Shown: positions 10,860 through 26,266 of the stretch, piece by piece
How the letters are laid out: every line of letters starts with the position of its first letter
How positions within the stretch are numbered: position 1 is the first letter of the stretch
Origin: a virus
Direction: 5' to 3' (one strand)
DNA length: 64,000 bases
Virus record (IMG/VR): IMGVR_UViG_3300032770_000017
Location: 16,208 to 80,207 of that record
Made by a program: the position numbers and the translations under genes
Notes under the pieces: model-generated
Told to the model about the DNA's origin: nothing
What the model saw: only the letters and a program-made list of their open reading frames with translations
Database searches by the model: none

Positions 10860-11099
10860 ATGTCAGCGACCGAGTTCCCGAACCCAGTTGTCGTGGACGT
10901 GGCCTACGCGCCAGCGGACGGGTACATCCCCGTCTACCACGCGGCGACCAACACCTGGCGGGCGTCCTCACCGACCGGGCTGACCGGTGCCACCGGCGCG
11001 ACTGGCGCAACGGGGGCAACGGGCCATGCGGGTGCAACGGGAGCGACAGGCCCTACCGGAGCGACGGGCGCCACCGGGCCCACCGGCGCCACCGGCTGA
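10860..11099 (+). CDS. Mini collagen-like peptide 1 (Gly-X-Thr repeats)
   Basis: GGAGG RBS; ~38-aa head followed by GAT/GPT triplets. Confidence 0.75.
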
Positions 11100-11111
11100 T
11101 AGGGCGATCCC

Positions 11112-11342
11112 ATGGGCGAATATCCCGACCCAGTCCTCATCGACCCGGCCTATCCGCCGTCGGATGGCTACATCCCGGCCTGGCACGCCGCGACAGGCAC
11201 CTGGCGTGCCATCGCGCCGACCGGTCCGGCTGGTGGAGCGACCGGCACCACCGGTGCGACCGCTGGCACGGGAGCGACGGGCCACACGGGCGCCACGGGC
11301 CCTACCGGTCACGTCGGCCCGACGGGCGCCACTGGGGCCTAG
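11112..11342 (+). CDS. Mini collagen-like peptide 2, paralog of 10860-11099
   Basis: Same head motif (DGYIPxxHAATxTWRA) and G-X-T tail. Confidence 0.75.
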
Positions 11343-11367
11343 CCCTTCAGCGGCGTAGCCTGAGGCT

Positions 11368-12033
11368 GTGCGCCTTGTCTACGTCTCCCTCGTCGCTGAC
11401 GCCGAGCGGTACGCGTCGGTGGCGGGGGCGCACATCCCCGAGCACGCCACCGCCGTCACGGTTGAAGGCGCGGCCTCTGCGGCGAGCGGGCTGAACCCGG
11501 TCCTCGAACGCTACGCGGCCGACCCATCGGTGGACGGCCTGGTGGTGCTGCACGAGGACGTGATCATCCGTGATCCCGAGTTCGAGCCGATGATCGGAGC
11601 GCACCTGCGCGAGCAACGGGTGGGCCTGATCGGCGTGATCGGCGCCGTGCGGCCACCCGGGCTCAACTGGTGGGACGCCGCGGTCAAGCGGGGCGCGGTA
11701 GACGAGACACGAGGACGCATTGACTTCGGCTGGGGCGACGCCGATGTGGACGTGTGCGACGGGCTGCTCCACGTCATCGGCCGTCGAGCCCTTGACGCCG
11801 GCATCCGTTACGACGAGTGCTACGACGCCTTCCACGGCTACGACTTGGACCTGTGCCTGCAGGTGAGGGCGGCCGGGCTGCGGGTGGTCGTGGCGCCAGT
11901 GTGGGTGGACCACCGCACCCGTGGCGGCTATGGCGACGTGGACGCCTATCTGCGCGCCGATGCCCGGTTCCGCGCCAAGTGGTCAGGAACGGTGCGCGGC
12001 GACGCCGATGTTGGCGAGCAGGTGCGGCGGTAG
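11368..12033 (+). CDS. GT-A fold glycosyltransferase (GT2-like)
   Basis: VVLHEDV, DVCDGLL and FHGYDLDLCLQ motifs. Confidence 0.8.
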   Translation: MRLVYVSLVADAERYASVAGAHIPEHATAVTVEGAASAASGLNPVLERYAADPSVDGLVVLHEDVIIRDPEFEPMIGAHLREQRVGLIGVIGAVRPPGLNWWDAAVKRGAVDETRGRIDFGWGDADVDVCDGLLHVIGRRALDAGIRYDECYDAFHGYDLDLCLQVRAAGLRVVVAPVWVDHRTRGGYGDVDAYLRADARFRAKWSGTVRGDADVGEQVRR

Positions 12034-12699
12034 CTCCTCGGAGATGGCGCTCAACGCGTCGATCAGCCGCGGGTCCCATTCGAGCATCATCGAATTCGGC
12101 ACGACCTTGAGGAAGTAGCCGAAGCATCGCCCAAGCCGGAACCCCGCGGTCCATAGATCGGCATGTAGCTCGTCGCGCGTGTAGACCCGCCGATGGCCTA
12201 CGAGCCTGTCCCGGTCCGAGAGTGTGTCGAGACGTGGCTGCAAGCCCATCCTCACCGCCAGGCGCCGGTGCAGTGATTCGGCGTTGGGGACAACGACCAC
12301 GATGGTCCCGTATGGCTTCAGCCACGAACGCACGGCCTGCAGCATCGTGATCGGGTGCTCGACGTGCTCCAGCACATGCAGGCAGAGCACGCCGTCATAG
12401 GGCTCGGCCGGGGTGAAGTCCTCGAACAGGGAGTGGTGCACGACGAGCCCGGGATGGCGCTCGGCCGCCTCAGCGCACAGCGCCTCCGACCCTTCGACCA
12501 CCTCCACGCTGAGGCCTCGCTCGATCAACGCGGCAGTGACCGCTCCGGTGCCGTAGCCCATCTCCAGCACCCGCTCTGCTGGCCTGAGGGCGTCGAGCAC
12601 CGTGGGCAGGCTGGCGAGCTGCATGGACTCCTCAATAGCGATGTCCGGCACTGACGTGTTGAGGTAGTACCCACGGGCGAAGTCGTCGAGATCGGTCAT
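11983..12699 (-). CDS. Class I SAM-dependent methyltransferase
   Basis: VLEMGYGTG, HVLEHVEHP, VVVPNAESLHR; start ATG at 12699. Confidence 0.9.
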   Translation of the reverse strand: MTDLDDFARGYYLNTSVPDIAIEESMQLASLPTVLDALRPAERVLEMGYGTGAVTAALIERGLSVEVVEGSEALCAEAAERHPGLVVHHSLFEDFTPAEPYDGVLCLHVLEHVEHPITMLQAVRSWLKPYGTIVVVVPNAESLHRRLAVRMGLQPRLDTLSDRDRLVGHRRVYTRDELHADLWTAGFRLGRCFGYFLKVVPNSMMLEWDPRLIDALSAISEELPPHLLANIGVAAHRS

Positions 12700-23883: not shown

Positions 23884-24233
23884 TGCCCGCCACCTATGCC
23901 ATCGGCCAAGTGCTGCCTAATGGGGCCCGCGTCACGACCGACGAGGTCACGACTGCGCCCGACGGTTCCACGGTCGAGCACATCGTCGCCCACTACCCGA
24001 ACGGCGCATGGGACGAGGAGACGATCTTCACGCCCGGCCCGGGGACGCCCGAGGCGAACCGGCAGATGACTCATCAGCGCGTCCGTGACGGGCTCATTGA
24101 CCATGCCACCTATCTCGCCGATCCGGCGACGACGTTCGAGGCCCTCGTTGCGCAGGTGGAGGCGTTGACCCGCCAGGTCAACCGACTGGCCCGCATCGTC
24201 CTGAACGAGCACGACACCACCGCAGGTACCTGA
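23883..24233 (+). CDS. Hypothetical protein, possible fibre-associated chaperone
   Basis: Coupled to fibre gene; C-terminal QVEALTRQVNRLAR coil. Confidence 0.55.
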   Translation: MPATYAIGQVLPNGARVTTDEVTTAPDGSTVEHIVAHYPNGAWDEETIFTPGPGTPEANRQMTHQRVRDGLIDHATYLADPATTFEALVAQVEALTRQVNRLARIVLNEHDTTAGT

Positions 24234-24234
24234 G

Positions 24235-25743
24235 ATGGATCCGCGCGGCGTTGTCGGCCACGTCCTCCCGCAGCGCCAGGGTCCCGACCGGTTCGCGCTC
24301 AAGTATGCGCACGAATACCTGAGCACGCCACTGCCGACGCCGACCTATCCAATCGACATCACCAGCGGCCTAACCGCGTGGGGTGGGTTCGGCAACAGCG
24401 GAGAGATGCCACCGCAGTACCCCAACCCTGTCGGGGATTGCGTTGATGCGGCGAAGTACCACCTCTATATGTCAACGGCACTTGGCGCCGGGCAACCGCT
24501 GCCGGCCCTCACGACGCTGCAATGCATCACCGACTACTTCGCTCAGACAGGCGGCAAGGACACGGGCGTGCGGATCTCCGACTCGCTCCTGTGGTCCTAC
24601 AACCGCGGCGACATCCTCGCCTTTGCCCCCGTTGATTACACGAACCTCGCCGTGCGTGACGGGCTGTGCCAAGCGGGCTGGGGGATCATCCTCGGCATGT
24701 GGCTGCCCACGGCCAACAACGGCCAAGGCGGCGGCCATTGCGTGGTGCTCGCCAAGGTCGTCGCGCAAGGGGGCGACGAGTTCTTCATCACCTGGGGCGA
24801 CGTGGAGTCCTTCAAGGACGAGACGTACCTGTACACCATCGACGAGGCGTGGCTCGTCGTGACCCACGAGGAGCAGCTCGCCGCTTTTGAACCGGCGTTG
24901 TTGGCCGATATCACCGCCTTGGGAGGCACTGGCGGGCCGCCTCCACCGCCCCCGGTCTATCCGACCCCTATCGCAGGAGAGACCGTGCTCATTCAGACTG
25001 TCGGGACCCCTTTCGGTGGCACCCCGACCGCGGTTCAACAGGCGATCAATGTGCAGAACACCGGGGCCACCCTGCTCGCCTTCGTCTGCGGCAGCACCGC
25101 CACTTCGCCGATGGCATCGTCGGTCTCTGGAGCTGGGGCAACTTGGACGCGCCGGGGCTCGCGTTTTGACCACCCGGGCACCGTTGAGGTGTGGGAGGGG
25201 ACAGGCGCGGCGGCTGGGGTGCAGACGGTTACGGCTTCGCTCGTCGGTCCGATCGCCAACTGCGCGTTCATCGTGCAGGAATGGACCGGGACCGGGTCGA
25301 CCGCGCCGGACTCTGTTACCTACGGCTCTTCCTCCGCTCCTCCATCGGTGATCGTCAGCCCGCAGGCTGGGGATGGAGTGTCGGCGTTCATCTTCTGCGG
25401 CAATGGCATCATCAATGTTGCCGCACCCTTCACGGGCGAGATCACGCTCCCGATGGTGAACGTCTCATCCTGCGTTGCACCGGTTACTGGCGCACTAGCC
25501 GCGGCATGGGTGACAGGGGGAGGGGCGTGGAACGGGCTCGCGATCGCCCTGCCAGCCGGATCGGCTCCTCCTCCTCCTCCTCCATCACCACTGCCACCGC
25601 CTTCGCCGACCTCGTTCCTGGACCACATCAAGAGCGAACTGCAAGCGCTTGACGCCACATTGCAGGCGATCATCGCTGAGATCACCGCGCAGGACGCCGC
25701 CACGTTCGGTGGATCGTCCTACGGCGGCGGCGCGACGGGATGA
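24235..25743 (+). CDS. Putative papain-like (Cys-His) peptidase domain plus beta-rich domain; paralog of 42277-43392
   Basis: GDCVDA, GGGHCVVL, ITWG; Pro-rich linkers. Confidence 0.55.
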   Translation: MDPRGVVGHVLPQRQGPDRFALKYAHEYLSTPLPTPTYPIDITSGLTAWGGFGNSGEMPPQYPNPVGDCVDAAKYHLYMSTALGAGQPLPALTTLQCITDYFAQTGGKDTGVRISDSLLWSYNRGDILAFAPVDYTNLAVRDGLCQAGWGIILGMWLPTANNGQGGGHCVVLAKVVAQGGDEFFITWGDVESFKDETYLYTIDEAWLVVTHEEQLAAFEPALLADITALGGTGGPPPPPPVYPTPIAGETVLIQTVGTPFGGTPTAVQQAINVQNTGATLLAFVCGSTATSPMASSVSGAGATWTRRGSRFDHPGTVEVWEGTGAAAGVQTVTASLVGPIANCAFIVQEWTGTGSTAPDSVTYGSSSAPPSVIVSPQAGDGVSAFIFCGNGIINVAAPFTGEITLPMVNVSSCVAPVTGALAAAWVTGGGAWNGLAIALPAGSAPPPPPPSPLPPPSPTSFLDHIKSELQALDATLQAIIAEITAQDAATFGGSSYGGGATG

Positions 25744-25744
25744 G

Positions 25745-26266
25745 ATGCGCGTCCTCGTTCCCTTCACTGCGCGCCATATAGAGACGATCGCGGGCGCGCC
25801 CGCCAACGCTGAGTGGGTGGATGTCTCCCGATCCTCCACCGCGTACTGGGAGACGTTGTGCGAGTTCTGGAATAGTGGCGATGACCTGCTGATCATTGAG
25901 CACGATGTGGTCTGTCGTCCTGATGTAATTGAGCAACTGGAGATGTGCCCTGAGCCGTGGTGCGCGTTCGGCTACAGCGATATGTGCCATCCCGAATGCA
26001 TGGAGGCATGGGCCAACGCGTTTGGCTGCACCCGGTTCCGTAAGGAATTGATGGCCGCCGCGCCCGACGCGGTGTCCTCTATCCCCGAGGGCTACGGCCG
26101 GGACTGGCACAACCTGTGCGACTACGTCTCGGGCATGCCTTGGCTGAACCCGGAGATGCGGCCCCAATGCCTGCGGGCGCGCGGCTTCTGGCACCACTGG
26201 CATTACCCGGCGGTCAGGCACCACAAGATGAGCCTTGAAAGCTACAAAGCCCTGATCGGCGGCTAG
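25745..26266 (+). CDS. Small glycosyltransferase-like protein
   Basis: DDLLIIEHDVV (DxD-like) and FGCTRF. Confidence 0.5.
   Translation: MRVLVPFTARHIETIAGAPANAEWVDVSRSSTAYWETLCEFWNSGDDLLIIEHDVVCRPDVIEQLEMCPEPWCAFGYSDMCHPECMEAWANAFGCTRFRKELMAAAPDAVSSIPEGYGRDWHNLCDYVSGMPWLNPEMRPQCLRARGFWHHWHYPAVRHHKMSLESYKALIGG

Follow-up and report, generated by a model that had tools for sequence, protein, structure and literature searches.

Glycosylated collagen-like naps are known from the spores of Bacillus and Clostridioides. The nap of Bacillus anthracis consists of BclA, a G-X-T collagen carrying O-linked oligosaccharides that are capped by anthrose (genes antABCD); this sugar is an amino-dideoxyhexose bearing methyl and N-acyl groups, and its synthesis involves an aminotransferase and an acyltransferase. 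In Clostridioides difficile, SgtA, a protein of 358 aa comprising a GT-A glycosyltransferase (GT) domain and four tetratricopeptide repeats (TPRs), is encoded immediately upstream of bclA3, and in vitro it transfers beta-O-GlcNAc onto Thr of the GPT collagen repeats of BclA3 (PMC7157674). For phage-encoded glycosylation of virions, demonstrations are limited to a few mycobacteriophages, where it shields capsids and tails from antibodies; according to the account of Freeman et al. (2023) given in PMC12363180, GTs and methyltransferases of Che8 (gp108-110), Corndog (gp35-38) and Myrna modify the phages' own virions. The present analysis concerns a stretch of 64,000 nucleotides (hereafter the window), corresponding to bases 16208-80207 of the 80,207-bp IMG/VR virus record IMGVR_UViG_3300032770_000017, which is complete according to CheckV and has a GC content of about 67%. 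Its virion genes enclose a 16.3-kb island (10851-27152) that joins the themes of virion glycosylation and the spore-type collagen nap. With a probability of roughly 65%, this phage glycosylates its own collagen-like fibres as spore-forming bacteria do, the island providing both the fibres and a cytoplasmic glycosylation machinery.

The initial annotation of this region had listed four collagen-like genes, FdtA- and FdtB-like genes, a GNAT, two methyltransferases, a flavoprotein-like gene, a single-domain GT, a 1057-aa protein with several GT domains and a further GT-like open reading frame (ORF). Gene calling by codon-position GC, combined with searches of Pfam, PHROGs, NCBIfam and PDB sequences, recovered every one of these items at or near the place where it had been reported. 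The observation itself is therefore confirmed, and its interpretation as a virion glycosylation system is partly supported by the comparisons described below.

The four collagen-like genes all lie on the plus strand. Mini-collagen 1 (10860-11099, 79 aa; PF01391, 6.7e-7) consists of an N-terminal head of about 38 aa followed by 13 G-X-T triplets, and mini-collagen 2 (11112-11342, 76 aa) is its tandem paralogue. Collagen-like protein 3 (21444-22478, 344 aa; PF01391, 7.2e-19) has a 108-aa N-terminal domain and then about 230 aa of G-X-T repeats, while collagen-like fibre 4 (22486-23883, 465 aa) possesses globular N- and C-terminal domains and matches tail-fibre PHROGs down to 1e-26. The latter gene starts with GTG at 22486, 10 nt after GGAGGA. 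A longer ORF, 21718-23883, was rejected as a gene, its first ~250 codons being the collagen-3 repeat read out of frame. The G-P/A-T character assigned to the four genes was upheld, Thr occupying the Y position in 87 of 117 G-X-Y triplets (runs of at least 4 triplets).

The central enzyme of the island is the 1057-aa protein, whose three modules are encoded consecutively on the plus strand, and whose proposed GT4-GT2-GT2-TPR order was borne out, the GT-B part through homologues and fold. Module 1 (17536-18945), the first 470 aa, has no Pfam match of its own. An exhaustive search found 2141 homologues, and Glyco_trans_1_4 was recognised in 28 of 30 that were aligned. An AlphaFold model made from the homologue alignment (predicted local distance difference test, pLDDT, 92.6) has a GT-B fold after an N-terminal helical bundle, and its best Foldseek matches are XcOGT (a bacterial O-GlcNAc-transferase homologue), MshA, HMW1C-type N-glycosyltransferases and SPY; judged from this predicted fold and from transitive homology, module 1 is a GT-B glycosyltransferase. 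Module 2 (18946-19632; aa 487-680) is an MftF/rhamnosyltransferase-like GT2 domain of GT-A type (PF00535, 3.5e-32, aa 487-595; TIGR03965, 8.3e-31), and its closest full-length relatives are multi-domain enzymes of Acidimicrobiales. Module 3 (19633-20709; aa 700-1057) combines a Glyco_tranf_2_4 domain with TPRs in an SgtA-like architecture (PF13704, PF00535, TPR_19, TPR_12 and TPR_8 at aa 704-1041), and its motifs DTGS.D and HEY are conserved. A search of IMG/VR with the 1057-aa protein as a single query retrieved no relatives, and its best full-length database relatives share module 2 only; module 3, taken separately, aligns end to end with stand-alone phage proteins of 412-449 aa.

A profile (A2) of module 3 and five of these stand-alone phage homologues was compared with PDB sequences. 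Designed TPR proteins aside, it matched GmaR (4.6e-12), the O-GlcNAc transferase of Listeria flagellin, and the peptide S-/O-glycosyltransferases ThuS (1.3e-8) and SunS (2.8e-8), which are the nearest solved relatives of the module; a search with the single sequence of module 3 gave ThuS at 3e-4. Since GmaR, SunS and ThuS all glycosylate proteins or peptides, module 3 is read as protein-directed. SgtA (CD3350) was not among the 120 profile matches listed, these being unnamed marine phage homologues; module 3 is nevertheless likely to be a member of the SgtA family.

The gene neighbourhoods of this GT2_4-TPR family were surveyed by scanning bacterial genomes and IMG/VR with profile A2 and examining the best 80 loci of each for runs of eight or more G-X-Y triplets lying no farther than 6 kb from the module-3 homologue; many of the scanned loci stop at contig ends. 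Such a collagen run was present at 39 of the 80 bacterial and 36 of the 80 viral loci. Controls gave 0/24 for viral loci with another large glycosyltransferase and 1/26 for viral loci with a DegT aminotransferase and no GT-TPR gene, the lone match being a glycine-rich run rather than a collagen. The P0008 loci, which were reached through a relative sharing module 2 and are without collagen, served only as controls. Overall, the linkage was seen at 75 of 160 loci versus 1 of 50 pooled controls, and the run lay within 2 kb in 67 of the 75 cases; for viral loci versus pooled controls Fisher's test gave p = 1.4e-8, the counts being uncorrected for shared ancestry. The bacterial loci include those of Streptomyces, Nocardioides, Chlamydiae, Polyangiaceae, Flavobacteriia, Burkholderiales, Acidobacteriota, Planctomycetota and others, and a single inherited event is implausible because the linkage is spread over many phyla and phage types. 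The GT2_4-TPR family is strongly and repeatedly tied to collagen-like genes in bacteria and phages. In the island, the first collagen run begins 1.06 kb downstream of the gene for the 1057-aa enzyme.

An independent parallel was found in unrelated marine T4-like contigs, which surfaced in a survey of IMG/VR DegT aminotransferases. Their sugar-nucleotide block, composed of genes for two aminotransferases, two GDP-mannose dehydratases, several glycosyltransferases and one methyltransferase, ends in a GT2_4-TPR gene, with a collagen-like gene directly after. One such T4-like locus (L046, 1-20399) has GT10, GT47 and Gly_transf_sug-type GT genes upstream of the GT2_4-TPR and collagen genes, together with genes for two DegT aminotransferases, two GDP-mannose 4,6-dehydratases and a Methyltransf_24 protein, forming a sugar island much larger than that of the window. 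Phage Tunturi_5 encodes a homologous enzyme near its tail-fibre genes; its annotation names no collagen-like gene, no repeat scan having been made.

The position of the island was established by comparison with relatives. On the left it is bounded by ORF 9903 (9903-10850, +), a putative major tail protein on sequence grounds: it matches phrog_792 (4.9e-6) with its N-terminus only, and its distant homologues in Microbacterium phages, labelled 'major tail protein', match mostly in the N-terminal third (an AlphaFold2 model with pLDDT 31 was unusable). On the right follows the head-tail adaptor (27153-28001, +; phrog_783, 5.7e-36), which is kept in relatives. The initial annotation had placed these genes between tail tube and fibre genes, which fits the left side as far as these distant homologues go; on the right the neighbour proved to be the adaptor and not a fibre gene. 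Three IMG/VR relatives of 84.8 kb (complete), 42 kb and 12 kb were retrieved through the capsid protein, to which theirs are 53-63% identical over the full-length query (tblastn) and about 70% identical over the C-terminal 324 aa. All three preserve the order capsid gene, ORF 8508 homologue, ORF 9903 homologue and adaptor, with a gap of 1-6 kb between the last two as against 16.3 kb here, and none of them contains the island enzymes or collagen repeats. The genes for capsid, X, major tail protein and adaptor are contiguous in phage Zooman, and in distant isolates the major tail gene and adaptor are adjacent. When 50,697 deposited phages were searched by megablast with the island, no match was obtained. 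At 10851-27152 the virion genes are interrupted by an inserted accessory island. Capsid relatives occur in phages of Arthrobacter, Gordonia and Microbacterium, and the host is probably an actinobacterium.

In related phages the slot is occupied by other fibre-like ORFs. A head motif of about 35 residues (F/Y-P/R-N-P ... DG ... Y ... W), present in both mini-collagens (10860-10975 and 11112-11225), recurs in several of these ORFs, where it is joined to a coiled coil or an NHL-like beta-propeller, without collagen. Its sites are 17460-17792(-), 16910-17458(-) and 13381-15582(-) in relative G002 and 7049-7408(-) in G001, with further ones at 16863 of L054 and 15161 of L062. Similar FPxNP...W N-termini begin fibre ORFs beside a GT-TPR gene in unrelated marine phages. 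From these sequence patterns the motif seems to be an exchangeable N-terminal anchor by which surface appendages are attached, and it may be a widespread plug-in anchor of virion appendages.

Upstream of the 1057-aa enzyme lies an amino-sugar pathway. The FdtA/QdtA-type dTDP-6-deoxy-hexose 3,4-ketoisomerase gene (16041-16457, +) encodes a cupin matching PF05523 at 1.5e-51 (174 bits against a cut-off of 23) and PDB entries 5tpu and 2pa7 near 1e-30, QdtA being among its PDB matches as well. It is followed by a gene for a DesV/QdtB/FdtB-like sugar C3-aminotransferase (16454-17539, +; PF01041, 6.5e-106), for which DesV (2oga, 2e-115) and QdtB (3frk, 2.8e-95) both outscore C4-aminotransferases. An FdtA-family isomerase and a DesV/QdtB-like aminotransferase constitute the established route from dTDP-4-keto-6-deoxyglucose to dTDP-3-amino-3,6-dideoxyhexose. 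Neither RmlA nor RmlB was found in the 80-kb genome, as the initial annotation had noted for the region it saw; PF00483 and PF16363 had no match there, while the controls gave one in all 14 genomes. The pathway would thus have to draw on the host pool of dTDP-4-keto-6-deoxyglucose, which contradicts the description of the system as 'self-contained'. Among the 50,697 deposited phages, the pair of FdtA and aminotransferase genes occurs only in short, unannotated faecal contigs. Streptomyces phage Zuko was rejected as a comparable system, since its FdtA-like gene stands alone among nucleotide-metabolism genes.

Candidate tailoring enzymes are encoded next to this pair, on the minus strand. Two class I S-adenosylmethionine-dependent methyltransferases, at 11983-12699 (Methyltransf_23, 9e-21; PDB 2p7h, 1.2e-22) and 13997-14686 (Methyltransf_23, _12 and _25; 2p7h, 1.1e-12), belong to the same subfamily, with 2p7h as best PDB match. 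A TylM1/DesVI-like identity was not borne out for either of them by the PDB searches, so a dimethylamino (mycaminose-type) sugar is not indicated. No FdtC/QdtC-type N-acetyltransferase with hexapeptide repeats (left-handed beta-helix) was found in the island, the sole acyltransferase candidate being a FemAB/Acetyltransf_6-like protein (15087-16145, -; PF13480, 7.8e-4; PF04339, 8.9e-4; TIGR03019, 7.7e-10), whose true start is probably Met45, near 16013. Between the methyltransferase genes lies one for a 434-aa protein (12696-14000, -) with amine-oxidase/NAD_binding_8-like language-model look-alikes (0.97-0.98). A 138-aa ORF (14683-15099, -) has a GS-x9-DxD pattern like that of minimal nucleotidyltransferases and no database match. 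Two small GT candidates complete the set, both on the plus strand: a single-domain GT-A glycosyltransferase of 221 aa (11368-12033; PF13712, Glyco_tranf_2_5, 8.7e-14; PF13641, 1.2e-7), and a phage-specific 173-aa protein (25745-26266) whose look-alikes come from comparison of predicted structures, with template-modelling (TM) scores of 0.70 to GT2 clusters and 0.78 to viral orphan clusters. The latter is a lead to a GT-A-like protein, its earlier description as GT-like agreeing with this structural resemblance.

No membrane-spanning or hydrophobic helices were found in the island proteins, which look soluble from their sequences, and the island encodes no flippase, polymerase or lipid-carrier transferase; for these reasons the machinery is considered cytoplasmic rather than one of the envelope. 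The same absences bear on a different explanation, in which the island remodels the host envelope, for example to block superinfection or to keep released particles from re-adsorbing, and the collagens are unrelated fibres that occupy the same variable slot. Sugar-nucleotide islands of marine T4-like phages are classically read as lipopolysaccharide genes, and module 2 has its nearest kin among multi-domain bacterial enzymes of polysaccharide type. Phage GTs altering the host serotype are also well known, as PMC12619734 states too. However, an envelope pathway would be missing the components just named, the island sits inside the virion block, and module 3 has protein- or peptide-directed relatives and belongs to a family that tracks collagen genes, so envelope remodelling appears quite improbable. 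Still farther from the evidence is hypermodification of the phage DNA with sugars, to which we give hardly any credence: phage GTs decorating hydroxymethylated bases are common (Pyle et al. 2024, as cited in PMC12619734), but the 80-kb genome has no thymidylate-synthase-like hydroxymethylase, TPR-bearing GT-A and OGT-like GT-B enzymes are protein-directed, and the location of the island and its collagen linkage speak against it as well.

Which virion proteins would be modified is a separate matter. A Ser/Thr-rich module of about 68 aa, without a Pfam match, is present in four structural proteins, namely the capsid protein and ORFs 8508, 9903 (one copy) and 44065, at approximately 6430-6640, 9480-9690, 10220-10430 and 44350-44560; its rough consensus is TDG...T.TSA.A.F...D.G..I....I..G..I.SV.NSTT...S..A. 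The enzymes might act on virion proteins other than the collagens, with capsid and tail-tube subunits as the chief targets on the model of Che8 and Corndog, this module as acceptor, and the collagens unmodified or only secondary targets. Capsid and tail-tube subunits are the sole demonstrated targets of phage virion glycosylation in the account of Freeman et al. (2023) given in PMC12363180 and PMC12619734. In relative G002, moreover, a 36% identical homologue of ORF 25745 and a Methyltransf_24-like ORF adjoin each other near head genes (25923-27034(-), locus L012), which suggests a simpler glycosylation pair. Against this, the Ser/Thr-rich module is kept in relatives without the island and even duplicated, the ORF 9903 homologues of G002 and G003 having two tandem copies; blastp and tblastn found no homologue of the essential GT Che8 gp110/Corndog gp38 in the island; and the genes to which the module 3 family is linked are collagen-like. 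Capsid and tail-tube subunits as the principal targets are therefore unlikely. The two kinds of target are compatible, and the Ser/Thr-rich module could be an additional target beside the collagens.

If the collagen-like fibres are glycosylated, we infer the following course of events from the genes. The substrates would be the four collagen-like proteins, and module 3, with its GT-A domain and TPRs, would recognise the fibre and place the first sugar on Thr of G-X-T, as SgtA does on BclA3. Priming of Thr by the GT2-TPR part had been proposed in the initial annotation; the homology to GmaR, SunS and ThuS, the linkage to collagen genes and the precedent of SgtA lend this putative role comparative support. 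Modules 1 (GT-B) and 2 (GT2) would extend the chain together with the two small GT-A proteins. The FdtA-like isomerase and C3-aminotransferase would convert dTDP-4-keto-6-deoxyglucose of the host into dTDP-3-amino-3,6-dideoxyhexose, which would probably be N-acylated by the FemAB/GNAT-like enzyme and methylated by the two methyltransferases. The result would be a rare sugar at the chain end, similar in kind to the anthrose of Bacillus BclA. The finished fibres would dock on the particle through their N-terminal domains. A more ambitious version, which we hold tentatively and regard as clearly less probable than fibre glycosylation as such, is an exosporium-like nap in which short and long G-X-T fibres, attached through the interchangeable anchor, are O-glycosylated by the three-module enzyme in assembly-line fashion and capped with an N-acylated, methylated 3-amino-3,6-dideoxyhexose that the phage itself makes. 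In that case spores and virions would have in common a general surface device, the glyco-collagen coat, that is traded horizontally, and the widespread GT2_4-TPR family would be its universal priming enzyme.

Several observations weigh against glycosylation of the collagen-like fibres, or against particular steps of it. A glycan on the virion is predicted from the genes. To our knowledge, bacterial and phage collagens are commonly G-X-T in composition, whether or not such enzymes accompany them, and this feature is not diagnostic by itself; the composition that the initial annotation had counted as evidence thus carries little weight alone. Some of the GT-TPR-linked viral collagens are almost without Thr. 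The kinship of module 3 with SgtA is drawn from architecture, gene context and the homology to GmaR, SunS and ThuS, not from direct alignment, and the module reads D-A-E where its five phage relatives read D-A-D. In the isomerase, His-Ala-Asn (window 16170-16200, FdtA-like residues ~58-60) replaces His49-Ala-His51 of the reference, Aneurinibacillus FdtA, so that the first active-site His is kept and the second lost; the protein scores slightly better against the FdtA entry 2pak, which has H-A-N at this site, than against 2pa7, which has H-A-H. His49 is presumably the essential base of FdtA, and a His51 variant presumably retains some activity. All matches of the acyltransferase are below curated cut-offs, which makes it a weak call: its acyltransferase-like nature, reported earlier as GNAT, was recovered, although as the FemAB/Acetyltransf_6 type. 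Equally weak is the call of the 434-aa protein, a lead to a flavoprotein-like enzyme: the language-model look-alikes agree with the earlier description, while no Pfam, NCBIfam or PDB sequence match was obtained and the GxGxxG dinucleotide motif is degenerate. The co-occurrence of fdtAB, GT2-TPR and G-X-T collagen genes raised in the initial annotation held for the GT2-TPR and collagen pair; rare-sugar genes are joined to collagens by co-location in this genome alone, and the sole other locus with FdtA, DegT and GT-TPR genes (L220) showed no collagen within 6 kb. Lastly, the five minus-strand genes at 11983-16145 (two methyltransferases, flavoprotein-like protein, 138-aa ORF and FemAB-like protein) are opposite to the virion genes, and their late expression may be absent.

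The remaining ORFs of the island are of less certain function. A Ser/Thr-rich (29%) protein of 219 aa (20776-21435, +) matches phrog_644 (6e-12) and, weakly, head-decoration proteins, and does not significantly resemble the 212-aa protein that sits in the slot of relatives. A 116-aa ORF (23883-24233, +) has no family matches. It is followed by a gene for a 502-aa protein (24235-25743, +), without family or PDB match, whose N-terminal Cys/His domain (24235-24950) is paralogous to that of ORF 42277-43392 (42277-42990), located beside lysis genes; the Cys and His (GDC...H) are conserved in both, and proline-rich linkers follow. Neither domain matches a known family, and no PDB relative was found for the one in the island; they are possibly cysteine peptidases. 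Two uncertain gene calls fill 26271-27156 (+): the first (26271-26798) is Ala-rich, and the second, a short ORF with an Ig-like C-terminal character, ends at 27156. The Ala-rich ORF, with its repeated L.DAPD motifs, looks more gene-like from its sequence than the overlapping ORF 26284-27156, whose first half is Pro/Arg/Ser-rich with atypical codon-position GC.

Outside the island, the structural block includes the capsid gene (5171-7576, +; phrog_777, 7.7e-39), whose product carries a long fused N-terminal region, ORF 8508-9890 (+), located between an HNH gene and ORF 9903, and the tape measure gene (30455-33100, +). Three HNH homing-endonuclease genes are dispersed in this block, at 1046-1720(+), 33639-34748(+) and 7573-8484(-), the last directly 3' of the capsid gene on the opposite strand.

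The linkage holds at about half of the 160 loci, which belong to many bacterial phyla and phage lineages, and this suggests that collagen fibres with a sugar coat are common, though unstudied. This has a bearing on phage host recognition, particle stability, immune visibility and the origin of the spore-coat glycosylation systems.

Among described systems, SgtA-BclA3 of C. difficile is alike in that module 3 is also a soluble unit of about 350-450 aa with a GT-A domain and C-terminal TPRs, encoded near a G-P-T-rich collagen gene, and the first nine residues of SgtA (MITISLCMI, from a published primer) fit by eye the N-terminal consensus ITLCMIVKDE of the family. Unlike SgtA, module 3 makes up the C-terminal third of the 1057-aa protein, in fusion with two further GT modules, and it is found in a phage, with putative virion fibres as substrates and an accompanying 3-amino-sugar pathway. 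GmaR, SunS and ThuS are likewise cytoplasmic enzymes in which a GT-A domain is joined to a helical substrate-binding extension and which act on proteins or peptides; they differ in their flagellin or lantibiotic-like peptide substrates, have low identity to module 3 and no collagen link. With BclA and anthrose the proposed product of the island would share, by analogy, the theme of a G-X-T collagen with a rare capping sugar. Anthrose, however, is a 4-amino sugar, whereas the island pathway is of the 3-amino type (FdtA/QdtA and C3-aminotransferase).

The same pair of cupin isomerase and pyridoxal-phosphate-dependent C3-aminotransferase is used by FdtA/FdtB and QdtA/QdtB (S-layer and O-antigen) and by Tyl1a/TylB and DesV (macrolides). 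The island deviates from the Fdt/Qdt systems in its phage setting, in the Asn at the second active-site His and in a FemAB/GNAT-like protein in place of FdtC/QdtC, and from the Tyl/Des systems in its methyltransferases. The mycobacteriophage systems resemble it in modifying the phage's own particle, and the Corndog genes also sit inside the head-gene block. Their acceptors are the C-termini of capsid and tail-tube subunits, according to the published account cited above, and they are without the nucleotide-sugar pathway, TPR enzyme and collagen substrate of the island. What Corndog gp37 and Che8 gp109 share with module 2 (27-28% identity) is generic GT2 similarity; since no homologue of the defining gp110/gp38 enzyme was found, the island is not a member of the Che8/Corndog system, and it is like mycobacteriophage virion glycosylation in purpose, not in parts. 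This locus is distinguished by its triple GT fusion, by a 3-amino-sugar pathway that tailoring enzymes accompany, by the clean boundaries of the island and by a high-GC setting that is probably actinobacterial.

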